DNA of 34,490 bases from an uncultured Thiobacillus sp. (GCA_964581195.1 CAZONS010000002.1:1-34490), one strand, 5' to 3'; positions 14,010-33,658 are shown, counted from the first letter of the stretch. Notes: a model not told the origin generated them from the letters alone. Numbers and translations: made by a program.

Positions 14010-14133
14010 CAACCGCCGTTCCGACGCGCCGGGATACAAATCGGCCCTGGCGTGAAACCGGGCGGTTACACCCGTTTGCTGAAATGGAATCGTCGCGATG
14101 AGCGATGGCTTCCAACCGATTCAGGAGACGATC

Positions 14134-14478
14134 ATGACGAAACGCACACTTACCTATCTGACCACCGGCCTGGTGCTTGCCGCCGGTCTGGCCCTGGCCT
14201 CCGAGCCCCCGCCGCAAGCTCCCAAGGAACAGGTCTATGGCAGTCAGTTGATGACCCATCAGGAACGCGCCGCGCATCGCGCCAAGATGCGCGCGGCCCA
14301 GACGCCCGAGGAAAGGGCGAAGGCGCGCGCGGAACAGCACGAGCGCATGCAGGAACGCGCGCGGCAGCTCGGGGTTGAAGTGCCGGCCACGCCGCCCGCC
14401 GTGGGTGGCGGCATGGGGCCGGGGCCGGGCGGCGGCATGGGCATGGGGCCCGGCGGTGGCGGCGGTCGTAACCGCTGA
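14134..14478 (+). CDS. Small secreted protein with an LTxxQ-like helix and a Gly/Met/Pro-rich tail (possible CpxP/Spy/ZraP-like periplasmic metal-stress protein)
   Basis: CAGGAGACGATC precedes the ATG. Signal peptide MTKRTLTYLTTGLVLAAGLALA. Charged helical segment LMTHQERAAHRAKMRAAQTPEERAKARAEQHERMQERARQLG. Tail GGGMGPGPGGGMGMGPGGGGGRNR. Confidence 0.7.
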   Translation: MTKRTLTYLTTGLVLAAGLALASEPPPQAPKEQVYGSQLMTHQERAAHRAKMRAAQTPEERAKARAEQHERMQERARQLGVEVPATPPAVGGGMGPGPGGGMGMGPGGGGGRNR

Positions 14479-14509
14479 CGCATTTCCGGCGGAACATGGC
14501 TTTCATGTC

Positions 14510-14538
14510 GCGGGGTGTGGCCATTGGTCGCACCCCGC
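14510..14538 (+). terminator. Weak stem-loop after the small protein gene
   Basis: GCGGGGTG, a 13-nt loop, then CACCCCGC. There is no clear T-tract, so termination is probably only partial. Confidence 0.3.
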
Positions 14539-14610
14539 CAGACATGATTTGGACTTGGTTTAAGACTCCTTTAAGGTGTCGCGATTAGTTTCCCGTCAAC
14601 TCATTCAACG

Positions 14611-15699: not shown

Positions 15700-15725
15700 T
15701 ACCCGTGTCACCCCTGGTACCTCTG

Positions 15726-16102
15726 GCTCCCACGCCCCAGCGTGGGAGCAAGTGCCGACGCTCCAGCGTCGAGTCTTGGCGATGTCGCCAGGTCCACGGG
15801 ACGCTGGAGCGTCCAGACTTGCTCCCACGCTGGAGCGTGGGAGCGAGGGTCAACCCCGTAGCCCGGATGCAGCTTCAGCGGAATCCGGGGATGTGTTCGT
15901 GCGAGTCCCGGATAGCGCTGGCTCTAACGCCCCAGCGTCGGCGCTTGCTCCCACGCTGGAGCGTGGGAGCGAGGGTCAACCCCGTAGCCCGGATGCGGCT
16001 TCAGCGGAATCCGGGGATGTGTTCGTGCGAGTCCCGGATAGCGCTGGCTCTAACGCCCCGGCGTCGGCGCTTGCTCCCACGCTGGAGCGTGGGAGCGAGG
16101 GT
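15726..16102. repeat. Composite REP array between the adaptor and pump genes; includes 2.26 tandem copies of a 126-bp unit (15818-16102)
   Basis: GCTCCCACGC-N4-GCGTGGGAGC starts at 15726, 15821, 15947 and 16073. The 126-bp period is confirmed by CTTGCTCCC at 15818, 15944 and 16070. The two full copies differ at only 2 positions. Each unit also contains the family A half-unit GTAGCCCGGATGC.GCTTCAGCGGAATCCGGGG. Confidence 0.9.
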
Positions 16103-16134
16103 TGTGTCCCCTTTGGGAATGGGGGGAGATCGTC

Positions 16135-19100
16135 ATGCTGAACAAGCTTGCCGAATTCGCCCTCACCCAGCGTCTGCTCACGTTGCTGTTCACCCTGATG
16201 CTGGTGGCGGCTGGAGTGAAGGCATGGCGCGAGATTCCCATCGACGCCTTCCCCGATGTCTCCACCACCCAGGTCAAGCTGATCCTGAAGGCCCCTGGCA
16301 TGACGCCGGAGGAAGTCGAGGCGCGTCTGGTGGCGCCGATCGAAACCGAGATGCTGGGCATTCCGAAACAGCGCTTGCTGCGTTCCGTGGCGAAATACGC
16401 GTTGACCGACATCACCATCGATTTCGAGGATGGCACCGACATCTATTGGGCGCGACAGCAGGTGGCGGAGCGGCTCGCGGCGGTGATGGGCGATCTGCCG
16501 GAGGGCGTGTCCGGCGGCCTGGCGCCGATCACCACGCCGCTGTCGGAAATGTTCATGTTCACCGTCGAGGGCCCCTTGCCGCTGGATGAGCGGCGCGCCC
16601 TGCTGGACTGGGTGATCCGGCCGCAGCTGCGCACCCTGCCGGGGGTGGCGGACGTCAATTCGCTGGGCGGTTTCGCGCGCACCTTCGAGGTGGCGCCGGA
16701 CAACGCGGCGATGAGCGCGCGTGGCGTCACCCTGGCGGAGCTCATGGGCGCGCTGGAGACCAACCTGAAGAATGACGGCGCCGGACGTCTGGCCGAGGGC
16801 GAGGAAGTCTGGGTGGTGCGGATCGAGGGCGCGGTGAAATCGCTGGACGATCTCGCCGCCATCGTCGTGAAGCGGGTCGGCGGCGTGCCGGTGCGGGTCG
16901 CCGACGTGGCGCGGGTGCGGGTGTCCAGCCTCACCCGCTATGGCGGTGTCACCAAGGATGGCCAGGGCGAGGCGGTGGAGGGTCTGGTCCTGGGCCTGAA
17001 GGGCGCCAACGCGCAGCAGGTGGTGGCGCGGGTCAAGGCGCGGCTCGGGGAGATCGCTCCCCGCTTGCCGAAAGGGGTCACCGTGGAGCCTTTCTACGAC
17101 CGCTCCAGCCTGGTCGAACGCGCCGTCGGCACGGTGGCGAACGCGCTCATGGAGGCCGTGGTGCTGGTGCTGATCCTGCTGTTCCTGTTCCTCGGCAACG
17201 TTCGCGCCGCGCTCACCGTGGCCGTGGCCCTGCCGCTGTCCGCGCTCGCCGCGTTCTGGCTGATGCAGCGTTTCGGCCTTTCCGCCAACCTGATGAGCCT
17301 GGGCGGGCTGGCCATCGCCATCGGCCTGCTGGTGGATGCGGCGGTGGTGGTGGTGGAAAACATCGTGACGCGGCTGTCGCACCCGAGTGGGGCGCCCAAG
17401 CTGCACGAGGTCTACCGCGCGGTGCGCGAGGTCTCGACGCCGACGGCGGCCGGGGTGTTGATCATCCTGATCGTGTTCCTGCCGCTGCTGACCCTGGAGG
17501 GGCTGGAGGGCAAGCTGTTCATCCCGGTGGCGCTGACCATCGTCTTCGCCCTTGGCGCGGCCTTGTTCCTGTCCCTGACCGTGGTGCCGGCGCTGGGCGC
17601 CCTGATCATCAAGGAGGGCGCGCACGGGGAACCCTGGCTGATGCGGAAACTGGATCGCCTCTATCGGCCGCTGCTGGATTGGGCGCTGGGCCACTTCCGC
17701 CTGGTGCTGGCCGGCGCCTTCGCCCTGTTGCTGGCGGCGGCGGCGATCTATCCCTTCATCGGCAAGTCATTCATGCCCACCCTGGACGAGGGCGATCTGC
17801 TGATCCAGCTGGAAAAGCTGCCTTCGATCAGCCTTGAAGCCAGTCTCGACATCGATCTGCGCGTGCAGCGGGCGCTCATGGCGCGGGTGCCGGAGATCCA
17901 GGGCGTGGTGGCGCGGGCCGGTTCCGACGAGTTGGGCCTGGACCCGATGAGCCTCAATCAGACCGATACCTTCCTGGTGCTGAAGCCCAAGGCCGAATGG
18001 CGGCAGCCGGACAAGGAATGGCTGACCGAGGAAATCCGCAAGGTGATGGCGGACTTCCCCGGCGTCGATTACGGCTTCACCCAGCCCATCGACATGCGTG
18101 TGTCGGAAATGCTCACCGGTTCGCGCGGCGACCTGGCGGTGAAGGTGTTCGGCACCGATCTGGCGGCGCTCAACCAGCTGGCCGGCGAGGTCGAAGCCCT
18201 GCTGAAGGGCATTCCCGGCGCCCAGGACGTGTTCTCGGTGAAGAACGATGGCGTCCAGTATTTCCGTGTCGAACTCGATCGCCTGGCCCTGGGGCGTCAT
18301 GGCCTCAGCGCGGACGCGGTGTCCGATTTCCTGAAGGCGCATCTGGAAGGCGTGAAGATCGGCATGATCCAGGAGGGCGCCCGCCGCACGCCGCTGGTCC
18401 TGCGCGCCGGCGAGAACGTGCGCGTCTCGCCGGCCCTGTTCGAGCGTCTGCGCATTCCCACCGACGATGGCCTCGCCATCCCCTTGACCGAGGTGGCGCA
18501 TCTGGTTCGCGCCGACGGGCCGGTGGCGGTCAACCGCGAGAACGGCGCCCGCTATGTGGTGATCCAGAGCAATGTCAGCGGCCGCGACCTGGTCGGCTTC
18601 GTCGAGGACGTGAAGCGCGCGGTGGCCGCCAAGGTGCGCCTGCCGCAGGGATACAGCGTCGTCTACGGCGGCCAGTTCGAGAACCAGCAGCGCGCCGCCA
18701 TGCGTCTGGCGGTGGTTGTGCCGGTGGCGTTGGGTTTGATCTTCCTGCTGCTGTTCGCCACCTTCCGTTCCCTGCGCCAGGCCACGCTGATCATGGCCAA
18801 TGCGCCCTTCGCCCTGGTCGGCGGCGTGATGGCCATGGGTGTCACCGGCGAGTATCTGTCGGTGCCGGCTTCGGTGGGTTTCATCGCCCTGCTCGGCATC
18901 GCGGTGTTGAACGGTGTCGTGCTGGTGTCCTACTTCAACCAGTTGCGCGACGAGGGCCTGGCCGCCGCCAGCGTGGTGCGGGAGGGATCGCTGCGCCGCC
19001 TGCGGCCGGTGATGATGACCGCCAGCATCACCGCCTTCGGCCTGTTGCCCCTGCTCACCGCCAGCGGGCCGGGTTCGGAGATCCAGAAACCGTTGGCCAT

Positions 19101-19194
19101 CGTGGTCATGGGCGGACTGTTCACCTCGACGGTGCTCACCTTGCTGGTACTGCCGGTGTTGTATCGGCGCTTCATATTGGGAGACAAGACATGA
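16135..19194 (+). CDS. Heavy-metal-efflux-type RND inner-membrane pump (CzcA/CusA family)
   Basis: Part of ORF 16102..19194. The ATG at 16135 is preceded by GGGGGGAG. MLNKLAEFALTQRLLTLLFTLMLVAAGV..IDAFPDVS is the canonical HME-RND N-terminus. About 1019 aa with a 12-TM pattern. Confidence 0.95.
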   Translation: MLNKLAEFALTQRLLTLLFTLMLVAAGVKAWREIPIDAFPDVSTTQVKLILKAPGMTPEEVEARLVAPIETEMLGIPKQRLLRSVAKYALTDITIDFEDGTDIYWARQQVAERLAAVMGDLPEGVSGGLAPITTPLSEMFMFTVEGPLPLDERRALLDWVIRPQLRTLPGVADVNSLGGFARTFEVAPDNAAMSARGVTLAELMGALETNLKNDGAGRLAEGEEVWVVRIEGAVKSLDDLAAIVVKRVGGVPVRVADVARVRVSSLTRYGGVTKDGQGEAVEGLVLGLKGANAQQVVARVKARLGEIAPRLPKGVTVEPFYDRSSLVERAVGTVANALMEAVVLVLILLFLFLGNVRAALTVAVALPLSALAAFWLMQRFGLSANLMSLGGLAIAIGLLVDAAVVVVENIVTRLSHPSGAPKLHEVYRAVREVSTPTAAGVLIILIVFLPLLTLEGLEGKLFIPVALTIVFALGAALFLSLTVVPALGALIIKEGAHGEPWLMRKLDRLYRPLLDWALGHFRLVLAGAFALLLAAAAIYPFIGKSFMPTLDEGDLLIQLEKLPSISLEASLDIDLRVQRALMARVPEIQGVVARAGSDELGLDPMSLNQTDTFLVLKPKAEWRQPDKEWLTEEIRKVMADFPGVDYGFTQPIDMRVSEMLTGSRGDLAVKVFGTDLAALNQLAGEVEALLKGIPGAQDVFSVKNDGVQYFRVELDRLALGRHGLSADAVSDFLKAHLEGVKIGMIQEGARRTPLVLRAGENVRVSPALFERLRIPTDDGLAIPLTEVAHLVRADGPVAVNRENGARYVVIQSNVSGRDLVGFVEDVKRAVAAKVRLPQGYSVVYGGQFENQQRAAMRLAVVVPVALGLIFLLLFATFRSLRQATLIMANAPFALVGGVMAMGVTGEYLSVPASVGFIALLGIAVLNGVVLVSYFNQLRDEGLAAASVVREGSLRRLRPVMMTASITAFGLLPLLTASGPGSEIQKPLAIVVMGGLFTSTVLTLLVLPVLYRRFILGDKT

Positions 19195-19496
19195 GCCTGG
19201 TTCAGCTCACCCTGGTGGCGCCGTCCAGCCTGGAGGAAGCCCTGGCCGAATACCTGCTCGCGCACCCGGAATGGGGTGGGGCCTTCACCCTGGTGAAGGC
19301 CGAAGGGCGAGGCAGTCGCGGCCATGCCCTGACGCCGCAGGAACAGGTGCGCGGCCGCGTCGCCCGCACCAAGTTCAAGATCGTGCTGGAAGCGGAGGCC
19401 TCCGGCCGTCTGCTGGAAGAACTGAAACGCGCCTTCCCCAAGCGGGACGTGGCCTACTGGCTGACGCCGGTGATCGAATTCGGGAGATTGGGATGA
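19191..19496 (+). CDS. Small cytoplasmic protein, likely DUF3240-like (beta-alpha-beta, PII/CutA-like size), embedded in the RND operon
   Basis: 101 aa, MSLVQLTLVAPSSLEEALAEYLLAHP... It forms the last 306 nt of the otherwise spurious frame 17997..19496. It has ATGA start/stop overlaps with both the pump gene (19191-19194) and the outer-membrane factor gene (19493-19496). Confidence 0.7.
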   Translation: MSLVQLTLVAPSSLEEALAEYLLAHPEWGGAFTLVKAEGRGSRGHALTPQEQVRGRVARTKFKIVLEAEASGRLLEELKRAFPKRDVAYWLTPVIEFGRLG

Positions 19497-20824
19497 AACG
19501 GTTTTTGACACCCCCCCGTAGCCCGGATGCGGCGCGGCGGAATCCGGGGAACGTGAACGCTCCCGGATTCCGCTATCGCTACATCCGGGCTACGGCTGGG
19601 CTGTGGCTGTTGTTGAGCGGCCTCGCCCACGCCGGCGCGGAGCTTCCGGCGCCGGTAGACCTGCCGCCGCTGACCGCGGTCGAGGCGGTTCTGGAAGCGC
19701 ATCCGTCCGTCCGCGCCGCCCAGGCGCGGGTCGCGGCGGCGCGCGCGGAAGGGCGCCAGCTCAAGGCCGGGGAGCATGAATATCAGGCCAGCGCCGGGTA
19801 TACCCGGCGCCGCGAAAGCGGTATCGGCAGCATGAATGATTGGGAGATCGGCATCGAACGCGGCCTGCGTTTGCCTGGCAAGACGAAGCTGGATCTGGAG
19901 ATGGGCGCCACCCTGGTGGCCATCGCCGAGGAGCGGGTGGGCGATGCCCGCCACGAAGCCGCGCGCGACCTGCTCGCCACCTGGTACGGCGCCCTGCGCG
20001 CCCAGGCCGAGGTCCAGGCCTGGCGCGAGCAGGCGGCCTTGCTGAAGCGGCAGCGCGAGGTGGTGGAAAAGCGGATCAAGGCGGGCGATGCCGCGCGCAT
20101 GGAACGCGCGCAGGCGGACGCCGCCCTGCGTCAGGCGGAAGCCGAAACCCGACGCGGTGAAACGGCGGCGGCGGAAGCCGCGGCCAGCCTCGCCACGCGT
20201 TTCCCGGGCCTGCCATCGCCGGCCGTCCAGCCCGGCGACCTGCCGCGACCGTCCGGCGCCGCCGACGATTGGGTGGCGGCGGCGCTGGAACACAATCATG
20301 AGCTCGCCATTCTCAACCGGGAGGCCGAGCGCATGCGCATCCAGGCGCGGCGGCAGCGGGCCGATCTCCTGCCCGACCCCACGCTGGGCCTGCGTTTCTC
20401 GCGCGAACGCGATGGTCAGGACAATCTGCTCGGTCTGAGCCTCACCCTGCCGCTGCCCGGTGACAATCGCCGCGCGCGGGTGGACATGAGCACGCAGGAA
20501 GCCGCGGCCCTGGCACAGGAGGAAGCCGCCACGCGGGCGCGCATCGAAGGGGAGATACGCATTCTCCATGCCCGCGTGCAGGGCACCCTGAGTCGACTGG
20601 AGTCCCAGGAAGAAATGGCGCGGCAACTGGACGGCTACGCCGATCTGGCCTGGCGCGCCTACCAGATGGGCGAGACGCCGCTCTGGGAAGCGCTAAATGC
20701 GCGCAAGGGGGTTCGCGATGCCCGCCGCGAGGCGTTGCTCTCCCGGCTCGACGTCCACGAGGCCGCCGCCCGCCTGCTGCTGGACAGCCATATGCTGTGG
20801 CCGATGCGGGAAGACCATCACTGA
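19493..20824 (+). CDS. Outer-membrane efflux factor (TolC/CzcC family)
   Basis: The internal ATG of ORF 19271..20824 is coupled to the upstream stop. Hydrophobic segment LWLLLSGLAHAGA, then paired coiled-coil repeats typical of the OEP family. The exact start is uncertain because a REP lies between the ATG and the signal-peptide core. Confidence 0.8.
   Translation: MKRFLTPPRSPDAARRNPGNVNAPGFRYRYIRATAGLWLLLSGLAHAGAELPAPVDLPPLTAVEAVLEAHPSVRAAQARVAAARAEGRQLKAGEHEYQASAGYTRRRESGIGSMNDWEIGIERGLRLPGKTKLDLEMGATLVAIAEERVGDARHEAARDLLATWYGALRAQAEVQAWREQAALLKRQREVVEKRIKAGDAARMERAQADAALRQAEAETRRGETAAAEAAASLATRFPGLPSPAVQPGDLPRPSGAADDWVAAALEHNHELAILNREAERMRIQARRQRADLLPDPTLGLRFSRERDGQDNLLGLSLTLPLPGDNRRARVDMSTQEAAALAQEEAATRARIEGEIRILHARVQGTLSRLESQEEMARQLDGYADLAWRAYQMGETPLWEALNARKGVRDARREALLSRLDVHEAAARLLLDSHMLWPMREDHH
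19518..19593. repeat. REP family A palindrome (76 bp) inside the 5' end of the outer-membrane factor CDS
   Basis: GTAGCCCGGATGCGGCGCGGCGGAATCCGGGG, a spacer, then CCCGGATTCCGCTATCGCTACATCCGGGCTAC. It translates in frame as RSPDAARRNPGNVNAPGFRYRYIRAT. Confidence 0.85.
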
Positions 20825-21269: not shown

Positions 21270-22196
21270 TCAAAGCGCGAACTCCTCGTCGTAAGGGGTC
21301 TCGCCCGCCACCACCGGCAGGGTGAAGGCGCGATCCCAGATGCCCCAGCCGCCGTCGAGCACGCGCACGTCCTGATAGCCCAGCGACTTCAGTTGCAGCC
21401 AGCCCAGGCTCATGCGGAAGCCGTCGTGGCAGTAGAGATAGACGGTCTTGTCCTTGGGCACATCCTTGTACAGGGCCGCCAGGCGCGCCGCATCGAACCA
21501 TTTCTGGCTCTGGCCATCGGTGCCGTCCAGGCTGACCACGTTGAGGGCGCCGGGAATATGGCCGCCCTGCACCGCATGCTTGATGACCGCGCCGGTGTAC
21601 ATGCCGTGCGGGCGGGCATCCACCAGCACCACCTTGGGGTCACGGCGGGACAACACATCGTCATAGACCTGCTGCCATTGCACAAATAACGCGCCATTGG
21701 CCGGCTTCAGCGTGACCTTGCCCGCACTGGGCGCGGGCGTGGCTTCCTTTGTCAGGTCATTGAAGGCAGCCCATTCCTGGCCGCCACCGTCGAGAATTCT
21801 GACCCGGCTCATATCGAAACCGTATAAGTCGAGCAGGTAATACAGCCGCGCGGTCAGCGCCGAGCGGGAATCGTCATACAGCACGACGGTGGAATCGTCG
21901 TCCACGCCCCAGCCGCGCAGGGTGGCCTGGAAGGTCTCGCGCGAGGGAAACAGCATGATGGAGCGCCCCGCGTTGTCGCCCAGATCCTTGAAACGCCGTA
22001 CCTGGATGGCGCCGGGAATGTGGCCCACGGTGAAATGGCGATGCGGGTGATAACGCACTTCCAGGATCACCAGTTTGGGGTTTCTGGACTTCTCCGCGGC
22101 CAGCCAGTCGGCGTCCACCAGGAAGGAACGGTCGGCGAAGACCGGGGTGGCGAGAAAGGTGGCCAGGGTAGCCAGGAGGAAAAGCCATTTGCGCAT
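21270..22196 (-). CDS. Periplasmic two-domain rhodanese (thiosulfate/3-mercaptopyruvate sulfurtransferase-like)
   Basis: 308 aa. Signal peptide MRKWLFLLATLATFLATPVFA. It has two rhodanese modules, and the C-terminal one carries the active-site loop YCHDGFRMS. AGAGGTG lies upstream of the ATG. Confidence 0.85.
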   Translation of the reverse strand: MRKWLFLLATLATFLATPVFADRSFLVDADWLAAEKSRNPKLVILEVRYHPHRHFTVGHIPGAIQVRRFKDLGDNAGRSIMLFPSRETFQATLRGWGVDDDSTVVLYDDSRSALTARLYYLLDLYGFDMSRVRILDGGGQEWAAFNDLTKEATPAPSAGKVTLKPANGALFVQWQQVYDDVLSRRDPKVVLVDARPHGMYTGAVIKHAVQGGHIPGALNVVSLDGTDGQSQKWFDAARLAALYKDVPKDKTVYLYCHDGFRMSLGWLQLKSLGYQDVRVLDGGWGIWDRAFTLPVVAGETPYDEEFAL

Positions 22197-22207
22197 GTCG
22201 CACCTCT

Positions 22208-22232
22208 AAAAAAACGCGGCCCAAGGGCCGCG
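22208..22232 (-). terminator. Rho-independent terminator after the porin gene, immediately upstream of the rhodanese RBS
   Basis: The minus strand reads CGCGGCCC-TT-GGGCCGCG followed by T7. It lies 30 nt downstream of the porin stop (22263) and 12 nt upstream of the rhodanese ATG. Confidence 0.75.
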
Positions 22233-22262
22233 CAAACCTGAAGGAATGAAATTGCGTAACGC

Positions 22263-23471
22263 TCAATAGCCAAATTTCGCGTTGATGCCGAGGGTGAGCG
22301 TCTGGTAATCCTTGGCCGCGGTGGTGCCATAGGCGTCTTCGGCGCGATCCACCCAGGCGGCGAACAGTTCGGAACTCTTGGTCAGCGCGTACTTCGCGCC
22401 CAGCGTCCAGGTATCGATGTCGCGGTTGCTGTATTGCGTGGCATCGCGGTTCTGGCCGTAAGCGGCGATCAGCGTGGTCTTGCCGAGCTTGTAGGTGCCG
22501 TTGAGATAGACGTTCTTGCCCAGGCCCAGGCCCTGCACATCCTCGTACAGGGCGGCGATGGACCCGTCGCCCAGCTTGTAGCGCGCGGCGATTTGCCAGC
22601 CCGAATCGTTGTGCAGTTTGGTGTTGGCCACGAAAGGAGCGCCGGAGCCGATACGGTTGGCATCGACCTCGATCCAGTCGACACCCACGAACAGCTTGCC
22701 CTCTTCGAACTTGACGCCCAGACCCCTGGCCTCCCCGCCCTGGAAGTCGGAAATCGGGCCGGCATCATGCATGCTGCTGTTTTCGCCATCCAGCTGGGTG
22801 GACAGCCAGGCACCCACCTTGAAGCCGTTCAGGCTGGGCGAGAGATACTCCATGGTGTTGGTGAAATAGCTGGAATGCAGCGCCGAGGAGCCCTGGCGAC
22901 CGCCGTATCCACGGGATTGGGGCGCGTTGTCGTTCCAGGGGTCGATGGCGGTCAGCGTGGTTTTGTAGGGCACGTCGATGCGGCCCAGACGCGCCTGGCC
23001 CCAGCCGCCCTTGAGGCCGGCATAGCCCTCGCGCCACTGGATGTCATTGACGGTGTTGTCGGCCGCGCCGTACAGAATCTCCGCCTTGTAGATCATGCTG
23101 GTGTCACCCAGGCTGGTGGGGATCTCGCCCGTGATCCCGAAGCGGGAGGCGTTGCTCTTCACCGTCGAGCCGGAACTGCCGGCACCGAAGTCGTCCGAAT
23201 AGTTGTCCGCCGACAAGCGCAATTGGCCATACAGCTTCACGGCCTTGGCGCGGGCCTTGTCTTCCGCCTCGGACTTCTCGACCTGGGCCGTCACCTTCTC
23301 CTGTTTCTCGCCCTGTGCCGCGAGTTTCTTGCTCAACGTTTCGATCTGCGTCTGCATCTGCCGCATCTGGTCCTGCATCTGCTTGAGCAAGGCGGCATCA
23401 TCGGCGATCGCCGGGAGGGAAAGACCCGCGGCCAGCACGGCGGCCGGAATGGGATTGAGTTTGAACGGCAT
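22263..23471 (-). CDS. Gram-negative porin with an N-terminal coiled-coil extension
   Basis: 402 aa. Signal peptide MPFKLNPIPAAVLAAGLSLPAIA. About 60 aa of heptad-like sequence follow (LLKQMQDQMRQMQTQIETLSKKLAAQGEKQEKV). The rest alternates amphipathic beta-strands and ends in an aromatic residue (..INAKFGY). AAGAGGAG is the RBS. Confidence 0.8.
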   Translation of the reverse strand: MPFKLNPIPAAVLAAGLSLPAIADDAALLKQMQDQMRQMQTQIETLSKKLAAQGEKQEKVTAQVEKSEAEDKARAKAVKLYGQLRLSADNYSDDFGAGSSGSTVKSNASRFGITGEIPTSLGDTSMIYKAEILYGAADNTVNDIQWREGYAGLKGGWGQARLGRIDVPYKTTLTAIDPWNDNAPQSRGYGGRQGSSALHSSYFTNTMEYLSPSLNGFKVGAWLSTQLDGENSSMHDAGPISDFQGGEARGLGVKFEEGKLFVGVDWIEVDANRIGSGAPFVANTKLHNDSGWQIAARYKLGDGSIAALYEDVQGLGLGKNVYLNGTYKLGKTTLIAAYGQNRDATQYSNRDIDTWTLGAKYALTKSSELFAAWVDRAEDAYGTTAAKDYQTLTLGINAKFGY

Positions 23472-26591: not shown

Positions 26592-27938
26592 TCATGGCGT
26601 GCCATCCTTGAGCTTGCGCCACAGCGTGGCGGGGTCGATGCCCAGTCGCCGCGCGGTCTGGGTCTTGTTGCCGCCGCTGCGTTCCAGCACGTGGGCGATC
26701 CAGGAGCTCTCCACTTCCGCCAGCGTCGCATCCGCTGGCCAGGGCGTGGCCTGAAGTCGGGCCGGCGCGGGACGCAGGTCGGCGGGCAGGTCGGCCAGCT
26801 CGATGCGCTCGCCTCCGGCGAGCACCAGGGCGCGCTGGATGATCCCCTCCAGCTCGCGCACGTTGCCCGGCCAATCGTATTGCACCAGGCGGCTCAGGGC
26901 GGCCTCGGCGATGCCGCGAACCCGGGGGTTGAGGGCGCGGCCGTGGCGGGCGAGGAAATACTCGGTCAGGGCGGGGATATCCTCTCTGCGTTCACGCAGC
27001 GCGGGTACCGGGATGGGGAAGACGTTGACGCGGAAATACAGATCCTGACGAAAACGGCCGGCGGCCACTTCCGCCTTCAGCGGGAGGTTGCTGGCGAGGA
27101 TCAGGCGCACATCCACGTCGATGGCCTTGACGCCGCCCAGACGCATGAGTCGCTTCTCCTGGATGAATTGCAGCATTCGGGTCTGGGCATCCAGGCTGGC
27201 GCTATTGATCTCATCCAGAAACAAGGTGCCGCCATGGGCCAGTTCGGGCAGGCCAGGCTTGCGCGAGGTGGCGCCGGAGAAGGCGCCCTTCTCGAAGCCG
27301 AACAGTTCCGATTCCAGCAGCGTGGCGGGGAGCGCGCCGCAGTTGAGGGTGAGAAACGAGCTGTCGCGGCGGCTGGACAGGCGATGGATATGTGCCGCCA
27401 GTACACCCTTGCCGGCGCCGGTTTCGCCTTCCAGCAGCACCGGCAAGTCCTTGTCGGCGATCTGGCCCGCCAGTTGCAGGCTCTGCTTCATGGCCGCGGC
27501 GCGGCTGTCCATCAGCGGCGGCGCGGCATGGCTGGCGAGTTGCGCGGAGAGCTGGTCGATGCGGCGGCGCTGGGCCAGGGTTTCGCGCAGACGCTTGAAG
27601 GTCAGCCGCAGCGCATCCAGCTCCAGCGGCTTGAGCAGCACATCCATCACGCCCAGGTGGAAGGCCTCGACCGTGTTGTGGGCGGTGGCGTGGCCGGTCG
27701 CCAGGATCACGGGCATGCCGGCATCCGCTTCGCGGGCCGCGGCGATCAGGGCGAGGCCGTCCTGGCCGGGCAGGCGCAGGTCGGTGAACAGGGCATCCGG
27801 AGGGCTGTCGCGAAGTTCGAGCAGGGCGGCATCGCCGTCGGACGCGGTGAGGGTATCGAAGCCTGCCTCGGCCGCGACACGGGCCAATAATCTGGCCTGG
27901 AGCGCGTCATCCTCGGCGATGAGCAGGGTGAAGGTCAT
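26592..27938 (-). CDS. Sigma54-dependent NtrC-family response regulator (REC, AAA+, Fis-type HTH)
   Basis: 448 aa. Receiver domain LIAEDD...DLRLPGQDG, Walker A GETGAGKG, sigma54-contact loop ESELFGFEKGAFSGA (a GAFTGA variant), Walker B LFLDEI, WPGNVREL, and C-terminal HTH GNKTQTARRLGIDPATLWRKL. Confidence 0.92.
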   Translation of the reverse strand: MTFTLLIAEDDALQARLLARVAAEAGFDTLTASDGDAALLELRDSPPDALFTDLRLPGQDGLALIAAAREADAGMPVILATGHATAHNTVEAFHLGVMDVLLKPLELDALRLTFKRLRETLAQRRRIDQLSAQLASHAAPPLMDSRAAAMKQSLQLAGQIADKDLPVLLEGETGAGKGVLAAHIHRLSSRRDSSFLTLNCGALPATLLESELFGFEKGAFSGATSRKPGLPELAHGGTLFLDEINSASLDAQTRMLQFIQEKRLMRLGGVKAIDVDVRLILASNLPLKAEVAAGRFRQDLYFRVNVFPIPVPALRERREDIPALTEYFLARHGRALNPRVRGIAEAALSRLVQYDWPGNVRELEGIIQRALVLAGGERIELADLPADLRPAPARLQATPWPADATLAEVESSWIAHVLERSGGNKTQTARRLGIDPATLWRKLKDGTP

Positions 27939-29308
27939 GGCGTTTTGTCCTCGGCGGCGGGTGGGAAGACGAGCTGGAAAGCGCAGCCCGCGCGCGTCTC
28001 CGCGAGTTGCAGGATCGCGCCCATTTCCCTGGTCAGGCGCTGGCTGATGGCGAGCCCGAGGCCCGTGCCCTGGCCGGCGGGCTTGGTGGTGACGAAGGGT
28101 TCGAACAGGCGCGCGCGCACTGTCTCGGGCAATCCGGGGCCGTCATCACTGACGGTCAGCATGGGCGCGTGGCCTGGCGCATGGGCCGCGGCGACGGCCA
28201 GGTGGACTTCCCGCGCGCCGGCCTGCGCCGCGTTGAAGACCAGGTTGAACAGCACCTGTTCCACCCGGGCGGCATCGGCGCGGACCATGACCGGGGTTTC
28301 GGCCTCGAGGGAGATGCCGCAGCCCTGCTTGCGCGCCAGCGGTGTGATCAGACGGACGAACGCGCCACACAGTTCGCTCAGGTCCAGCGTGACCAGACTG
28401 GGCGCGGGCGCCCGCGCTGCGGTGAGCATGTCGCGCACGATCCGGCCGGCGCGGCGAGCCTCGGCTTCGATGGTATCCAGGGACTCGCGCATCTCCCCCT
28501 CGGGGGCCAGGGCCAGCGCGCTCTGGGCATAGCCGAGCACATTGGACAGCGGCGTGTTGAGTTCATGCGCGACTTCGCCGGCAATCTGGCCGATCGCGGC
28601 CAGGCGTTGCTCCGAACACAGGCGGCGCAGGGCCTCGTTGCGGGTTTGCGCGGCATCCTCGGCTTCGGCCAGATGATGCGCGATGCGTTCGCGCAGATTG
28701 CCGATGGCGGCGGCGAGTTCGGCGATTTCCTCCGGCGCGCCGTCGGGTACGGATGGCGTGGCGCCTTCCGCGTCGGCCTGCGCGATCAGGCTGGCCATCG
28801 GCTGGATCAACTGGTTCAGCAGCGAACGGCGCAGGGCCCAGAAGGTCAGGGCGGCGAACATGGCCAGGCCGAAGGCGAGCAGTCCGGCCAGTTGCCACAC
28901 GGCGCGTCGACCCGGGGCCGGGTCGTACTGGGCCAGGACTTCGCCGATGGTCTCATCGGCGCCGCCGCCGCTGACCCGCATGGGTGCCCGCAGCATGTCC
29001 AGGTCCGGCACCCGACGTCCCACGCTACCCAGTACCTGGCCGTCGGCGCGGCGGATTTCCACGAAGGCCACGGAACTGGATAAATCGGCCAGGTAGCGTT
29101 CCAAGGTGCCGTAGTCGCGCATCAGCACCGCATCCAGGGAGACGGCGGCGAGCTGGCTGGCCAGCGCGCGCGCCTTGTCCGCCTGGGCTTCCTCGATCAG
29201 GCGCAGCGTGGTTTGCCAGAGCACGCCGCCGAGAACGAAGAAAAAGAACAACCAGGCCACAGCCAGGATGGTGGTGAGACGGAAGGCGAGGGAATGCGGC
29301 CTTACCAT
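27935..29308 (-). CDS. Sensor histidine kinase (2 TM, periplasmic loop of about 130 aa, HisKA, HATPase_c)
   Basis: H-box IAGEVAHELNTPLSNV, N-box FNLVFNAAQAG, G1 SDDGPGL, G2 GQGTGLGLAIS. It has an ATGA overlap with the regulator gene (27935-27938) and a 7-nt overlap with the upstream binding-protein gene. Confidence 0.88.
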   Translation of the reverse strand: MVRPHSLAFRLTTILAVAWLFFFFVLGGVLWQTTLRLIEEAQADKARALASQLAAVSLDAVLMRDYGTLERYLADLSSSVAFVEIRRADGQVLGSVGRRVPDLDMLRAPMRVSGGGADETIGEVLAQYDPAPGRRAVWQLAGLLAFGLAMFAALTFWALRRSLLNQLIQPMASLIAQADAEGATPSVPDGAPEEIAELAAAIGNLRERIAHHLAEAEDAAQTRNEALRRLCSEQRLAAIGQIAGEVAHELNTPLSNVLGYAQSALALAPEGEMRESLDTIEAEARRAGRIVRDMLTAARAPAPSLVTLDLSELCGAFVRLITPLARKQGCGISLEAETPVMVRADAARVEQVLFNLVFNAAQAGAREVHLAVAAAHAPGHAPMLTVSDDGPGLPETVRARLFEPFVTTKPAGQGTGLGLAISQRLTREMGAILQLAETRAGCAFQLVFPPAAEDKTP

Positions 29309-30126
29309 GCCTGCAGCGCCTGTTCCATCCGCCGCACGACCTGAAAATGGGCGTCCTCGATGACGGCGAAAGCGGTATGCGGAGCCAGGGCGTTGAAGGC
29401 GCCCTCACCGGCGCTGTCCGGACGCAGCAGCGCCTGGCGTACCCGGTCGGCGTCCTCCGGCGGTACCTTGGGCGAAGCCGCGATGACGTGAGGCGGCAGC
29501 GGCTGGGAGATGGCCAGGACGCGCAGGCCCCGGGGGGTGTAGGCCCTGGCGATATCCAGGCGCAGGCCGCCGGCGTCGAAGTCGCCGTGGAGTACCGCCA
29601 GGGCGACCCGTTCATGGCGGTCCAGGTGGACGATATCGGCCAGGTCGGCACGTTTCAGTCCGGCCTGGGCGAGGATCAGTTTGGGCGCCACGGAACTGCT
29701 CATGGAGATATCCGCGCCGAGCGCGATGCGTTTGCCGGCCAGGTCGGCGACCCGCCGGACCGGGCTGTCCTTGTGTACCACCAGGGCGCTCTGATAGAAG
29801 GCCTGGCCGTTTTCCGTCTCTCCCGCCAGGATCTCCACTCTGGCCCGTGCCCGCGCGCGCACGTAGGGCGTGGGGCCCATGTAGGCGAAGTCCGCGCGGC
29901 CGCTGGCGATCATGTCGATCTGTTCGTCATAGGTGGCGGCGATGATCAGCCGCATGGGGCGGCCAAGCGCCTCGCCGAGATAGCGCGTCAAGGGCCGGAA
30001 ACGGGCGTAGAGGCGGCTGGGCGTATCGTAGGGATGCACCGCCAGCACCACCGGCGTGGTGGCGGCTTCCACCCGGGCAAACCAGGGGAATAGAGACATG
30101 CCGGCGAGGAAGGCGCGCCGCCTCAT
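29302..30126 (-). CDS. Periplasmic PhnD-like (phosphonate-binding-family, type 2 PBP) solute-binding protein; no transporter genes adjacent
   Basis: Internal ATG of ORF 29302..30246. MRRRAFLAGMSLFPWFARVEA is a signal (possibly Tat-like RRxFL). VLAVHPYDTPSRLYARFRPLTRYLGEALGRPMRLIIAATYDEQIDMIASGRADFAYMGP is the typical PhnD-family N-lobe. Confidence 0.75.
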   Translation of the reverse strand: MRRRAFLAGMSLFPWFARVEAATTPVVLAVHPYDTPSRLYARFRPLTRYLGEALGRPMRLIIAATYDEQIDMIASGRADFAYMGPTPYVRARARARVEILAGETENGQAFYQSALVVHKDSPVRRVADLAGKRIALGADISMSSSVAPKLILAQAGLKRADLADIVHLDRHERVALAVLHGDFDAGGLRLDIARAYTPRGLRVLAISQPLPPHVIAASPKVPPEDADRVRQALLRPDSAGEGAFNALAPHTAFAVIEDAHFQVVRRMEQALQAW

Positions 30127-30216
30127 GCCCGCGCCTCGTTCACCGATGGCCTTCCCAGGGCTTTCGGCGAAGCCCTTCGAACAGTGCCTGAACGTGCGGT
30201 GTGTCCAGCCTGGCCG

Positions 30217-30265
30217 GCGCGGTCGGTTTGCAGCCGGAGATTCCAAAGTCCGACAGGCTCCTGGG
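30217..30265. mobile_element. Solo terminal fragment of the 169-bp MITE-like element
   Basis: GCGCGGTCGGTTTGCAGCCGGAGATTCCAAAGTCCGACAGGCTCCTGG closely matches one arm of copies 1 and 2 at 20895-21228. It lies in the promoter region of the phnD-like/kinase/regulator operon. Confidence 0.5.
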
Positions 30266-30321: not shown

Positions 30322-31080
30322 TCACTTGCCGCCGCCCCGCGCGGCGCTCGCGGCCAGGGCCTGCTCCAGCCGGGCCGCCGGCACGTAGCCGCCGATGCGC
30401 TGGCCGTCGGCCAGGAACAGGGTCGGTGTGCCGGTGATGTTGTACTTGCGGCCGAGGGCCCGCAGTTCATCCAGAGGGACCTCGCAGTCGGAGGCCGGCG
30501 GCAGTCGGCCTGCGAGGATCCAGTCGCGCCAGGCCTGGCCGCGATCCGGTGCGCACCAGATCGCGCGTGTCTTGCTGACGGAATCCTCGGACAGGATGGG
30601 CAGCAGGAAGGTGTGGATGGTCACGTCGTCCAGCGTTTCCAGTTCCTGGGCGAGTTTCCGGCAATAGCCGCAATCGGGATCCTCGAAGGTCACGAGCACC
30701 CGGCTGCCGTCGCCGCGCACCTGCCTGGCCGCCAGTTTCAGCGGCAGCGCGGAAAAATCGATGCGCGCCAGTTCCCGCTGCCGCTCCTGGGTCAGGTTGC
30801 GCTCCTTTTCGAGATCGAGAACGTTGCCGATGAAGATGTGCTCGGCACCGGCGTCGCTGTAGAACAGTTCGCCATCCATGCGGATTTCATAAAGATCGAG
30901 AAAACCGGCCGGGCGGATGCTTTCGATATGGCGCTCGGGTCCTGCCCACTTCTGGATGGCCTGGCGAAGGGCGGCGTGGTCGTCTTGCCGCGGCGCGCAG
31001 GCGCCCAGGATGAGCGCGAGCGTCGCGGCGAGCAGGGTCGTGAGGGTCGGTGGTCGCATGAGGGGAGGAGAAGGTTCCAT
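30322..31080 (-). CDS. DsbC-type thiol:disulfide isomerase-like protein with a lipoprotein signal
   Basis: Internal start of ORF 30322..31305 (ATG at 31080, alternative at 31059). Lipobox LILGAC. Thioredoxin-fold active site DPDCGYCRKL (CGYC as in DsbC) and an N-terminal dimerisation-like region. Confidence 0.8.
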   Translation of the reverse strand: MEPSPPLMRPPTLTTLLAATLALILGACAPRQDDHAALRQAIQKWAGPERHIESIRPAGFLDLYEIRMDGELFYSDAGAEHIFIGNVLDLEKERNLTQERQRELARIDFSALPLKLAARQVRGDGSRVLVTFEDPDCGYCRKLAQELETLDDVTIHTFLLPILSEDSVSKTRAIWCAPDRGQAWRDWILAGRLPPASDCEVPLDELRALGRKYNITGTPTLFLADGQRIGGYVPAARLEQALAASAARGGGK

Positions 31081-31146
31081 GGCAAGGAGTGAAGCATAGT
31101 CGTCTCGTGGCCTTCGCGGCCGATTCGCGCGCGTGCCGCGTTGACG

Positions 31147-31179
31147 AAAAAAAACCTGGCGGACAGGGCGCCCGCCAGG
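31147..31179 (-). terminator. Strong rho-independent terminator after the cytochrome gene
   Basis: The minus strand reads CCTGGCGG, a 9-nt loop, CCGCCAGG, then T8. It lies about 50 nt after the stop at 31232. A second hairpin (CCCGCC..GGCGGG) lies at about 31190-31210. Confidence 0.85.
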
Positions 31180-31231
31180 TTGGCGTTGCTCCCCGCCGGA
31201 TCGGGCGGGAGGCACGGATCGGCCGCGTCGT

Positions 31232-33508
31232 TCAGTCTCCGTTCGGGCCGTCGTGGCAGTCGTAGCAGCCGACCTGCTGGCCGGCGGCATAGTGCTTCTG
31301 CCCACCCTTCACGCTGAAGGTGCGCGCCGTCGCCACCTTGGCCAGGATGCCGCCACGGTAGTCCTTGCCATGACAGGTGGCGCAGGCGGTCGCGTTGTGT
31401 TCCGCGTAGTGTTCGTGCTCGACGACCCAGCCCTGGCCGACCGTATGCAGGCCATGCGGGCCACCCGAGGCGGTCATGGGCACCGTGGCGTGGCAGACCG
31501 AACATTCGCTGACGGTGCCGATATAGCCCTGCAGCTCCAGGCTCTGGACGTTGTCGTTGGCATGCGAGCTGGGGTATTCGGCGTGGGTCGAGCCGTGGCA
31601 GGCCTCGCATTGCAGGTTGCCGTGGCCCTTGCTGAAGCGGTAGAGGGAAAAACCGCCGGCCGGGGTGTTGGCGTTGCTGGCGAACAGGGTGTTGCGGGTG
31701 CCGCGCAGCAGGCCGCCATTGTCGAAGGCCGAGGTCAGACGAACGAAATTGCCGCTCGCGTCCTGGTCATGGCAATGCTGGCAGGTCGGCTGATCCAGCC
31801 AGCCTTCGCGGCCGGCCTGACCCACCTTGCTCATGTTGCCGTGGCAGCTCTGGCAGTCGATGGCATTGCTGCCGTCGGCCTTCTTGGCGTTGCCCATGGC
31901 GCCGCGCAGGCACTTGGTCTGCGAGCCGGGGTGGCAGAGATAGCAGGAGTCGCGGTTGGACAGGTTGTCCAGGGTCAGGTTGCTGGACGGGTCCCGCACG
32001 CTGGCATGGCGTGCATGCAGGGCCTCGGTCAGCGGTTTGATCCCCGCGATCGCCGGTGTGCCCAGGGCGTTGGACTTGTGGCAGCCGGCGCAGAGGACGG
32101 GCTGGCCGGCATTGGCCGTGGCCAGGAGGGTGCCGCCGGTATAGGTGGCCTGCTTGCCCGCGGTCGTGATGGCATTGGGGAATTTCTCGTCATGCAGCCG
32201 CAGGATGTTCTTCTTCCAGTCCTTTTCCGGATCGACATCGTTGACCCAGCCCGCAACCGGCTTGGCGGCGTTTCCGCTGGTCGAGGCGTGGCAGGACTTG
32301 CAGCTCATCTCGTCGGAGACCGGCAGCACGACCTTGGTGGAAGCCAGCACCTGACCCGAGGCATCCTTCGCCACCACCTTGACCATGGGGTAATAGTTCT
32401 TGAAGCCCTTGTCGTCATAGGGCGTGACGGGAATGCCTTCCGCTTCCCACCAGCCTTGCACGCTGTTGTAGGTCATCGCGGCCGGCGTCAGGGACGGTGT
32501 CGGATTGCTGGTGCCGGGGTCGCTCAGGTTCAAGCCCCGGTCGGTCGCGGGCTGGGCGCCGAACAGCTTCAGCACCCAGTCCCAGAAGTTGGTCTTGGTC
32601 GCGCTGCGGGTGTTGATGGAACCGGTGGTATCGGCGACCGCCTCGTAGGTCAGCGTCACCCCCTGCATGACATGTTTGTTGTTGGCGGCCGAGCGCGAGA
32701 TCAGGTGGGCATGCAGGTTGTTGTAGGGCGGCAGGATGGAGAACACGGAGTAGTCCTTGCCATCGACGCAGTGCATGCCGAGATCATTCCAGGCGACCAG
32801 GGCATAACTGCCCGACGCGACGGGTGCCGGCGGCGCGGGCGGCACGTACCCTTCCTCTTCATTCGAGTCGTCGTCCCTGTGTCGCTCGAAGTGCGCCTTG
32901 GCGTCTTCCTTGCTCACCCGGTAGCTGCCGACCAGGCCGGTGACGTGATCATCCGTGGTCTCGTCGTCATCCAGGTCCACGCGCTCCTGCCGTTTCAGGG
33001 TCTCCCGGATGCTGGCGGGGATGTCGATGCCGTTCTCCGGGTTGTCGTCCGCATCCATGGATTGCAGGGTGCGGAGTATCCGCACGACCTTTTCATCATT
33101 GCTGTCACCGGTGCCGATCAGATCCAGCGGCGTGACCTTGCCCGCATTCGGCACGGCGGAGCCGAGATGGAGGTTGCCGACCCTGAAGGTCACCCGCTCA
33201 CCATCGCGATAGATGAAATTGCCATTGCCATCGGTGATGCCGCTGCCCGTGGCGGACTCGAACTCCAGGCCGGACACCGGCGCGTCGATGAAGGTGCCGA
33301 CCAGGGTGCCGCCGCTGGGCGAGGCGGTGGTGGCGCCGCCGCCGCCGCCACCACCGCCGCACCCGGCCAGCAGCCACGCCGTCGCGGCCAGCGCGAGGCG
33401 GGTGCGTGGGGACGACAGTCCGATCATGAAGTGATGTCCCGCCCGCGTGGGCTTGCGTGAGACTTCCGTTGGGTGGCGCGTGCCGCCGGGTGATGAGGTG
33501 GCTTCCAT
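31232..33508 (-). CDS. Nine-heme c-type cytochrome lipoprotein with a large heme-free N-terminal half
   Basis: Part of ORF 31232..33757. The ATG at 33508 has a strong SD (CAGGAGGAGATCATG). An in-frame alternative ATG at 33427 gives a textbook lipoprotein signal MIGLSSPRTRLALAATAWLLAGC followed by G8. Nine CxxCH motifs, all in the last ~330 aa: CKSCH, CAGCH, CYLCH, CQSCH, CQHCH, CEACH, CSVCH, CATCH, CYDCH. Confidence 0.9.
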   Translation of the reverse strand: MEATSSPGGTRHPTEVSRKPTRAGHHFMIGLSSPRTRLALAATAWLLAGCGGGGGGGGATTASPSGGTLVGTFIDAPVSGLEFESATGSGITDGNGNFIYRDGERVTFRVGNLHLGSAVPNAGKVTPLDLIGTGDSNDEKVVRILRTLQSMDADDNPENGIDIPASIRETLKRQERVDLDDDETTDDHVTGLVGSYRVSKEDAKAHFERHRDDDSNEEEGYVPPAPPAPVASGSYALVAWNDLGMHCVDGKDYSVFSILPPYNNLHAHLISRSAANNKHVMQGVTLTYEAVADTTGSINTRSATKTNFWDWVLKLFGAQPATDRGLNLSDPGTSNPTPSLTPAAMTYNSVQGWWEAEGIPVTPYDDKGFKNYYPMVKVVAKDASGQVLASTKVVLPVSDEMSCKSCHASTSGNAAKPVAGWVNDVDPEKDWKKNILRLHDEKFPNAITTAGKQATYTGGTLLATANAGQPVLCAGCHKSNALGTPAIAGIKPLTEALHARHASVRDPSSNLTLDNLSNRDSCYLCHPGSQTKCLRGAMGNAKKADGSNAIDCQSCHGNMSKVGQAGREGWLDQPTCQHCHDQDASGNFVRLTSAFDNGGLLRGTRNTLFASNANTPAGGFSLYRFSKGHGNLQCEACHGSTHAEYPSSHANDNVQSLELQGYIGTVSECSVCHATVPMTASGGPHGLHTVGQGWVVEHEHYAEHNATACATCHGKDYRGGILAKVATARTFSVKGGQKHYAAGQQVGCYDCHDGPNGD

Positions 33509-33556
33509 GATCTCCTCCTGAGTGACGCGTCCTGCTCGCGGCGCGCTGGAAATAAG

Positions 33557-33573
33557 GTGTAAAAACAATACAC
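33557..33573. promoter_or_regulatory. Palindrome GTGT-N9-ACAC, proximal copy, upstream of the cytochrome gene
   Basis: GTGTAAAAACAATACAC (also GTGTA-N7-TACAC) in the only AT-rich stretch of the window, 49 nt upstream of the 33508 start. Confidence 0.3.
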
Positions 33574-33641
33574 AACGATAGGCCGAAATTGACCCCATGA
33601 AAGGTCGGGGCATTCGTACTTTACAGGATCGATCGACATAC

Positions 33642-33658
33642 GTGTAAAAAAAACACAC
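33642..33658. promoter_or_regulatory. Palindrome GTGT-N9-ACAC, distal copy
   Basis: GTGTAAAAAAAACACAC (extended as CGTGT-N9-ACACG). Its centre lies 85 bp, about 8 helical turns, from the proximal copy. Confidence 0.3.

Follow-up and report, generated by a model that had tools for sequence, protein, structure and literature searches.

A nine-heme lipoprotein cytochrome c from an uncultured Thiobacillus sp. belongs to a large, uncharacterised family and may take part in electron transfer at the cell surface

A stretch of 34,490 nucleotides from an uncultured Thiobacillus sp. (GCA_964581195.1 CAZONS010000002.1:1-34490), which is called the window below, encodes a nine-heme lipoprotein cytochrome c on its minus strand (31232-33508). 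Analysis of this gene and its homologues revealed that it is a member of a large, cross-phylum and so far uncharacterised family, whose core consists of a non-heme beta-sandwich followed by a nine-heme domain. The host is apparently a Thiobacillus-like betaproteobacterium that oxidises sulfur. From the ATG at 33508 to the stop codon at 31232-31234, the open reading frame (ORF) translates to 758 amino acids (aa), and the identical 758-aa product was called by gene callers in two independent public assemblies of the same strain. A second in-frame ATG at 33427 (MIGLSS..., 731 aa) has no Shine-Dalgarno sequence; residue numbers refer to this 731-aa form throughout. The GC content at third codon positions (GC3 = 0.84) is of the coding type. 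A 735-aa antisense ORF (31253-33460, plus strand) overlaps nearly the whole gene and also 'matches' antisense ORFs in 49 other loci; it was rejected as a high-GC artefact and represents no gene.

The flanking signals largely agree with a preliminary description of this locus, which had given the gene its own AGGAGG ribosome-binding site and a strong terminator. Both are present: the Shine-Dalgarno sequence AGGAGG can be read on the minus strand at 33514-33519, 5 nt 5' of the ATG at 33508, and an intrinsic terminator (31143-31181, minus strand; 13-bp stem with eight G-C pairs and a T-run) lies 51 nt past the stop codon, parting the cytochrome gene from the downstream dsbC-like gene. The gene is monocistronic in the window. 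The same description had proposed an AT-rich promoter region, of which the AT-rich part holds (33550-33649, minus strand; GC 38-44% vs 67% for the window). This patch is presumed to be the promoter region, and neither a sigma-70 nor a sigma-54 consensus was found when it was searched for both.

Based on homologue alignments and two AlphaFold runs, the protein divides into five parts, namely a signal region with lipobox and glycine tether, an N-terminal module (N-module), a Pro/Ala-rich linker, the beta-sandwich and the nine-heme domain (all on the minus strand). The signal peptide (33359-33508), identified in the sequence, ends in the lipobox L-L-A-G-C (33373-33359). L-A-G-C, which comes after AATAWLL, matches the lipobox pattern [LVI][ASTVI][GAS]C that is expected behind a hydrophobic h-region in outer-membrane lipoproteins, with a residue other than Asp at position +2. 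The predicted lipidation site is Cys23 (Cys50 in the 758-aa form), the +2 residue is Gly, and the lipobox Cys is kept in at least 90% of 30 full-length homologues. Directly 3' of the lipid-Cys codon lies a flexible tether of eight glycines (Gly8, 33335-33358), and Gly-rich tethers are conserved in homologues. The N-module (residues ~38-190, 32858-33316) combines a small beta-sandwich (GTFIDAPVSGLEFES...GNLHLG) with a helical part that carries acidic stretches. It is joined to the core by an acidic, Pro/Ala-rich linker (EEGYVPPAPPAPVASG, 32810-32857), also identified in the sequence, which is of low complexity and variable length in homologues. The beta-sandwich of the core (residues ~207-372, 32312-32809) bears the near-invariant motif AWNDLGMHCxDGxDxSxFSILPPYN, within which alignments delimit NDLGMHC (residues 214-220, 32768-32788). 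The nine-heme domain (residues 373-731, 31235-32311) contains exactly nine CxxCH motifs (32288-32302, 32078-32092, 31931-31945, 31841-31855, 31769-31783, 31595-31609, 31490-31504, 31370-31384 and 31253-31267), the first Cys of each being residue 376, 446, 495, 525, 549, 607, 642, 682 and 721, respectively. It also includes the segment C506...M511 (TKCLRGAM, 31895-31912), whose C506 is the partner of C220 in the beta-sandwich.

Comparison with the preliminary description showed that the sequence elements it named were all found in the translation, including the LLAGC lipobox, the Gly8 tether, the GTFIDAPVSGLEFES... block, the acidic stretches DLDDDETTDDH and HRDDDSNEEEGY, and the segment LVAWNDLGMHCVDG. 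Its general picture of a tethered multiheme cytochrome with large non-heme parts is likewise supported. The heme-free N-terminus is real as well, but its length is 352 residues in the mature protein, and the ~400 aa that had been given are reached only with the signal peptide of the 758-aa form included. Similarly, the nine CxxCH motifs occupy the last 356 aa and not ~330 aa. What had been taken as a single 400-aa domain is in fact two, the portable and variable N-module (~38-190) and the conserved beta-sandwich (~207-372).

The protein had been regarded as an orphan, a label that is rejected because homology searches gave a large family. A search of 5.8 billion protein clusters returned more than 2800 matching database proteins, the best of them full-length at 50-88% identity, a range that holds for many full-length matches. 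The named best matches come from Sulfuricurvum, Sulfurimonas, Nitrosophilus labii, Thiobacillus, Hydrogenophilaceae and Methylomarinum vadi, and the database labels of the matches read only 'multiheme c-type cytochrome' or 'hypothetical'. With residues 200-731 as the HMMER query, 1910 clusters (at 50% identity) were obtained at E<=1e-3, 1235 at E<=1e-10 and 486 at E<=1e-30. A scan of one genome per species confirmed at least 576 loci that encode the core, distributed among Campylobacterota, methanotrophs, Acidobacteria and many Betaproteobacteria (Thiobacillaceae, Sulfuricella, Sideroxydans, Ca. Nitrotoga, Rhodoferax). Because all matches are uncharacterised proteins, no full-length match to a characterised family, the result that the preliminary description had said would speak against its proposal, came out of these searches. 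A full-text literature search found no description of a nine-heme NDLGMHC family, and the family is known only as unannotated database entries. The 'nonaheme' cytochromes of a Ferrigenium preprint and MtoC were considered and set aside as different, inner-membrane-anchored proteins.

The window protein has all the hallmarks of the family: AWNDLGMHCxDG...FSILPPYN, VLPVSDEM before heme 1, the nine CxxCH motifs and the pair C220/C506. Nine hemes are kept at 80 of 81 loci (the exception, L010, is a gene cut by a contig end), in 99/103 aligned sequences and in 84/108 long representatives. With homologues in the thousands and invariant motifs in several phyla, a lineage-specific orphan or a non-functional ORF is ruled out, and we regard the chance of either as negligible; the identical protein in the two independent assemblies and the GC3 of 0.84 also speak against them, and a missing functional annotation is all that speaks for them. 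The parts that accompany the core vary considerably. Some members carry short lipoprotein linkers, others a Sec signal and two immunoglobulin-like (Ig-like) domains, and members from Acidobacteriota and further phyla have the core fused to long tails made up of PKD, Big_9, cadherin-like, TIG/Ig, BACON or PATR (autotransporter-associated) repeats. Two paralogues of the family were detected in some genomes (L069:5422-7335 and 10488-12461; L010 and L029, which belong to the same metagenome-assembled genome, MAG), and one Hydrogenophilaceae MAG has both a short form and a long one that matches the query from residue 43, in the N-module region, onward.

In a first AlphaFold run with 30 sequences, the heme domain was modelled poorly (predicted local distance difference test, pLDDT, 40-60), and Foldseek was uninformative. 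A second run on the core only, with a 103-sequence alignment, gave a pLDDT of 94.5 and a predicted template modelling score (pTM) of 0.92, the beta-sandwich reaching 95-98 and the nine-heme domain ~90-98. Foldseek with this core model returned no PDB match at E<1e-3 among the top 50 matches listed; the best were weak Ig-like/p53-like beta-sandwiches that cover the beta domain only. Foldseek is weak on heme-rich folds with little secondary structure, and a heme packing like that of MtrC or NrfA could escape it. In PDB sequence searches, no matching chain was found with the single sequence (E<=1) or with the family profile (E<=10). Pfam and NCBIfam have no model for the non-heme parts, and NCBIfam gave no family-level match for the whole protein. 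The placement of the protein outside the MtrC/OmcA, NrfA/Otr/HAO and MtrA/MtoA families is supported. For the non-heme region, these searches gave no match to a characterised family or to a solved structure.

The preliminary description went further and saw no fit to MtrC at all, which is not the case for the C-terminal ~200 aa. Above threshold, Pfam detected Cytochrome_C7 and the MtrC/MtrF pentaheme domain II/IV (PF22113), the latter at 40 bits against a gathering cut-off of 30, in one region only (residues 524-726, profile positions 8-164 of 176). This profile match relates the C-terminal part of the heme domain to the pentaheme domain of MtrC/MtrF. Weak matches to Cytochrome_C554 and NrfB-like models remained below threshold in Pfam/NCBIfam.

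Analysis of the alignment of 103 diverse homologues revealed that the nine CxxCH motifs are invariant, and that a set of further residues is nearly so. H412, H471, H602, H615 and H661 are present in 103/103 sequences, and H474, H658 and H671 in 102/103. These eight near-invariant His would be enough for eight bis-His hemes, and the ligand of the ninth heme is probably H219 (99/103) or M511 (Met in 100, His in 3). There is no CxxCK in the protein, the model shows one long helix only (residues 665-686), and the conserved His and Met residues would suffice for nine six-coordinate hemes. Such a conservation pattern appears typical of electron-transfer hemes rather than of open catalytic hemes. C220 of the beta domain and C506 of the heme domain are both present in 96/103 sequences and both absent from 7/103, with no sequence carrying one of them singly. 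In the same seven sequences M218, H219 and M511 are changed too, and M511 is replaced by His in three of them. The simplest reading of this co-variation would be an inter-domain C220-C506 disulfide beside the first heme, and a two-Cys/His/Met metal site would be the more exotic alternative. Because C220 and C506 are lost only together, C220 is unlikely to be an axial ligand of a catalytic heme as in SoxA or TsdA. In either case, the interface between beta domain and heme domain is the most likely functional hot spot of the protein.

The N-module, modelled with block-mean AF2 pLDDT values mostly of ~86-96 (two blocks at ~79-80), is found in part of the family only, and many homologues that cover just 70-75% of the query are without it. 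No Pfam family covers it. A profile of 17 N-module sequences matched residues 280-338 of PDB 23px, an SslE/AcfD homologue (E=4.4e-8, 36 bits), with an overlap of ~55 residues in the first half of the N-module. The match represents a shared domain and not membership of the SslE/AcfD family, because the M60 protease part is absent according to Pfam/NCBIfam. SslE is a surface lipoprotein secreted by the type II secretion system (T2SS). A search with the N-module by itself obtained two proteins, P0297 and P0298, which have the same lipobox, Gly tether and N-module but continue into just one class-I heme c domain. Their N-modules are 49-52% identical to that of the window protein over 152 aa, and their genes lie directly upstream of the gene for the flavoprotein FccB of flavocytochrome c sulfide dehydrogenase. 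In its classical form this enzyme is periplasmic and has FccA as its cytochrome. The N-module thus appears to serve these bacteria as a lipoprotein stalk that can be reused for different c-type cytochromes; alone, it gives no clue to the face of the outer membrane that carries the cargo. The lipoprotein FccA-like form was seen on two metagenome contigs (L088:1589-3846 and L089:2599-4727), the second of which adds an adjacent OmpR-type regulator and kinase.

In the window, the upstream neighbour of the cytochrome gene is a divergent MoxR ATPase gene, and past the terminator lie genes for a DsbC-like lipoprotein, a PhnD-like binding protein, a histidine kinase and a sigma-54 regulator. A functional link to any of these was rejected, none of them being conserved beside homologues; the co-occurrence with the dsbC-like gene and the sensor operon that had been suggested earlier was accordingly not borne out, and the DsbC neighbour is shared only by the two assemblies of the same strain. 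The DsbC-like isomerase (30322-31092, minus strand; DsbC_N and Thioredoxin_2) is predicted to be a lipoprotein, unlike the usual soluble DsbC, because it has its own lipobox, LILGAC. The next three genes (26592-30246, minus strand) form a unit of a PhnD-like periplasmic binding protein (PF12974), a histidine kinase and a sigma-54-dependent response regulator. Since the start of the kinase gene overlaps the end of the binding-protein gene, the arrangement suggests that the PhnD-like protein is the ligand receptor of the sensor kinase. Farther away the window contains genes for ExbBD, a Crp/Fnr regulator, a two-domain rhodanese adjoining a Porin_4 porin (21270-23471, minus strand), and an RND efflux system (HlyD/AcrB/OEP) with an OmpR/HAMP-kinase pair next to it (11874-20824). 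No link was found between the cytochrome and the rhodanese/porin or RND efflux genes of the window, and the more distant genes are likewise not conserved beside homologues.

Among homologues, no partner genes are conserved across lineages, and the recurrent neighbours are lineage-specific only. An OmpR-type regulator and kinase, which are a generic family, occur near ~36-45 of 81 loci. In Campylobacterota, a set made up of a ~330-aa porin-like protein, a ~140-aa protein, a histidine kinase and, in the opposite orientation, an OmpR-type regulator precedes the cytochrome gene at 10 of 80 genome loci (e.g., L083:3875-7921, L086:4839-8926 and L002:4022-7827); Pfam gave no match for the ~330-aa or the ~140-aa protein. 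The closest betaproteobacterial relatives (72-74% identity) have a divergent DUF6502 and DUF5666 pair immediately upstream (L081:5346-7824, L087:6319-8797 and L093:5312-7826), where the window has the MoxR ATPase gene instead. In Methylomarinum vadi (L085:11191-13131), the gene is followed by one of the RoxA-like diheme cytochrome/peroxidase type and preceded by one for a HupE/UreJ-family membrane protein, with a cytochrome P460 gene nearby. T2SS genes were detected within 8 kb in Sulfuricurvum/Campylobacterales (L002, L007, L011 and L086) and in Nitrosophilus labii (L083), in differing arrangements (three in Sulfuricurvum/Campylobacterales). In Parasulfuritortus, gspG-gspF-gspE-pilN-like-secretin lies directly 3' of the cytochrome gene on the same strand, and T2SS genes are near the gene in a Hydrogenophilales MAG too.

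Taken together, we favour the view that the protein is an outer-membrane or cell-surface electron-transfer cytochrome, analogous to MtrC/OmcA and outside that family, and consider the chances that this is right to be evenly balanced. It is favoured because the protein has a lipoprotein anchor with Gly at +2, because the core is fused elsewhere to extracellular-type domains, and because T2SS genes are found repeatedly near the gene in two phyla and SslE/AcfD has a domain in common with the N-module. The data above establish the domain layout, the place in the family, the conservation, the Cys co-variation and the gene contexts. For localisation, heme ligation, direction of electron flow and substrate, we infer the following course. 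The apoprotein would be exported via Sec and acylated at Cys23, with Gly at +2 directing it to the outer membrane as far as sequence rules go, and the hemes would be attached in the periplasm. The Gly8 tether, N-module and linker may keep the redox core off the membrane. Eight hemes would be bis-His, and the ninth, at the interface of beta domain and heme domain with H219 or M511 as ligand, would lie beside the C220-C506 disulfide or two-Cys metal site, so that this interface could be the likely entry/exit or regulatory site. The heme chain would then carry electrons between the cell envelope and an extracytoplasmic partner. If the T2SS displays the protein on the cell surface, as with MtrC/OmcA, it could exchange electrons there with extracellular or insoluble donors and acceptors, for example metal sulfides, S0, minerals of Fe or Mn, or shuttles. 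A more ambitious form of this proposal, which we put forward tentatively and think is probably not correct as a whole, is that the family is a new class of T2SS-placed surface nine-heme cytochromes, in which solid or extracellular substrates make contact at the interface of beta-sandwich and heme 1, through a disulfide that can be switched by redox state or through a two-Cys/His/Met metal site, and that it is the missing extracellular electron-exchange component of Thiobacillus-, Sulfuricurvum- and Sulfurimonas-type chemolithoautotrophs.

Several observations weigh against surface exposure. T2SS linkage was found at only ~9 of ~87 loci, which come from two phyla, and T2SS genes are absent from the window; the T2SS-like clusters of Campylobacterota could be competence (Cts-type) systems, and the T2SS-linked betaproteobacterial forms have a Sec signal and two Ig-like domains and are not lipoproteins. 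The window contains no other multiheme ORF and no MtrAB/MtoAB-like conduit or Mtr-type porin, and another ORF with at least two CxxCH motifs was detected within 8 kb at just 10 of 81 loci, and at two of these (L056 and L065) the ORF is just the family gene, which the motif filter had overlooked. The gene neighbourhood therefore offers no electron route to a surface protein. The heme ligands proposed above are read from conservation. Because the N-module also tethers an FccA-like and presumably periplasmic sulfide-dehydrogenase cytochrome, the N-module alone is no proof of surface exposure. This last point, along with the lack of an outer-membrane conduit encoded nearby, speaks for a different role, that of a periplasm-facing, outer-membrane-tethered carrier in the oxidation of sulfur compounds (sulfide, S0, thiosulfate), in which the N-module parks the cytochrome, electrons go toward the respiratory chain and nothing is exposed on the surface. 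In line with such a role, family members are concentrated among sulfur oxidisers (Sulfuricurvum, Sulfurimonas, Sulfurovum, Thiobacillus, Sulfuricella, Parasulfuritortus, Sulfopaludibacter), and OmpR-type regulators stand beside the FccA-like gene and many family members. However, the list of the top 80 matches is biased to relatives of the query, and methanotrophs, Ca. Nitrotoga, Rhodoferax and Acidobacteria carry family members as well. The response regulators of the FccA-like gene and of family members are 56% identical, but the histidine kinases compared are just 32% identical, so that shared regulation of the FccA-like and cytochrome genes is unproven. The fusions of the core to extracellular or adhesin-type domains in other phyla (PKD, cadherin, TIG, PATR, BACON) and the recurrence of T2SS genes beside the gene in two phyla also argue for the outside of the cell, and we consider the periplasmic carrier rather less probable than the surface cytochrome, with a real though minor share of the weight.

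A catalytic role, in which M218-H219-C220/C506/M511 form an active site with a Cys/Met-ligated heme or an MccA-like heme-copper site with two Cys acting on a soluble sulfur or nitrogen substrate, would account for a beta-domain motif that is conserved more strictly than a purely structural domain requires, and for the joint change of M218, H219, C220, C506 and M511 in the divergent subgroup. An extra beta-sheet domain is found in MccA and OcwA, the latter a nine-heme surface protein with catalytic hemes (PMC6703420), and the weak sub-threshold matches to Cytochrome_C554 and NrfB-like models point in the same direction. On the other hand, a disulfide is the simplest explanation for two Cys that co-vary without exception, and CxxCK is missing. 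No PDB similarity to NrfA, OTR, MccA, HAO or OcwA was obtained, also with the profile at E<=10, and no NrfA-type fold was among the top 50 Foldseek matches, with nothing at E<1e-3. The confident model also lacks the C-terminal three-helix bundle. We therefore regard a catalytic enzyme as improbable, and more so than the periplasmic carrier.

How sulfur-oxidising and denitrifying chemolithoautotrophs such as Thiobacillus, Sulfuricurvum, Sulfurimonas and Sulfurovum exchange electrons with solids (pyrite/FeS, elemental sulfur, Mn/Fe oxides, cathodes) is poorly understood, and to our knowledge most of them are without the Mtr/Omc systems of model metal reducers. The present family is a concrete candidate for this task, being widespread, strictly conserved, nine-heme, apparently extracytoplasmic and sometimes T2SS-linked. 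If the more ambitious proposal above is true, the family would provide a route for chemolithoautotrophs, some methanotrophs and Acidobacteria to metal sulfides, S0, Mn/Fe oxides and electrodes; if the protein is a periplasmic carrier instead, it would be a useful but ordinary addition to the electron-transfer chains of sulfur oxidation. The gene itself is not unique, and the novelty lies in an uncharacterised family whose predicted core fold is confident yet new to the PDB, with no characterised relative or solved structure. Two building blocks that can be reused emerge as well: one is a portable lipoprotein module that tethers c-type cytochromes, and the other is an interface of beta-sandwich and heme whose Cys pair co-varies.

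Comparison with known systems places the protein nearest to the surface cytochromes MtrC, OmcA, MtrF and UndA of Shewanella, which are likewise lipoproteins with a Gly-rich tether after the lipid Cys, and in which a beta domain is likewise followed by densely packed hemes, here probably six-coordinate. The tethers of MtrC/OmcA are CGGS, which the C-GGGG tether of the window protein resembles. Further likenesses are the C-terminal ~200 aa, which exceed the PF22113 threshold for domain II/IV of MtrC/MtrF, and the T2SS association seen in the genomes of relatives. In contrast to the MtrC family, the window protein has nine hemes rather than 10 or 11 in two pentaheme domains, its model predicts one Ig-like beta-sandwich instead of two split beta-barrels (I and III), no mtrAB-type porin-cytochrome genes adjoin it, and no chain of that family appeared in the Foldseek top 50 or as a PDB sequence match. 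As in MtrC, a conserved Cys pair is tied to the beta domain, and domain III of MtrC is reported to have a redox-active disulfide (PMC4486940). However, the CX8C of MtrC lies within one domain, while the pair described here would bridge the beta and heme domains.

OcwA of Thermincola potens (PDB 6I5B) also has nine hemes and an extra beta-sheet domain, and the surface electron transfer that is proposed here has been shown for it. It is related to NrfA, c554 and MccA, with two catalytic hemes of open coordination and a C-terminal three-helix bundle (PMC6703420). The window protein shows no detectable sequence similarity to OcwA, its model is without the bundle, and its conserved residues would permit nine six-coordinate hemes; moreover, OcwA comes from a Gram-positive organism and is no outer-membrane lipoprotein. 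The octaheme sulfite reductase MccA (PDB 4RKM) is comparable in being a multiheme protein that has an additional beta-sheet domain and a Cys pair near a heme. This pair is reported to be functionally essential and to form a Cu(I) site (PMC6703420). MccA differs in being a soluble periplasmic enzyme with eight hemes, including a CX15CH, and no sequence or fold match to it was obtained.

The two remaining systems resemble the N-terminal parts of the protein. SslE/AcfD (PDB 23px) is a lipoprotein with a C-(D)GGG tether and one small homologous beta-sandwich in its N-terminal region; unlike the window protein, which has no peptidase domain, it is a ~1500-aa M60 zinc metalloprotease without hemes. 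The lipoprotein FccA (P0297, P0298) has one class-I heme c domain and the partner FccB in place of the beta-sandwich and nine-heme core, but it shares with the window protein the same lipobox, Gly tether and N-module before a c-type cytochrome, and it comes from similar betaproteobacterial metagenomes.

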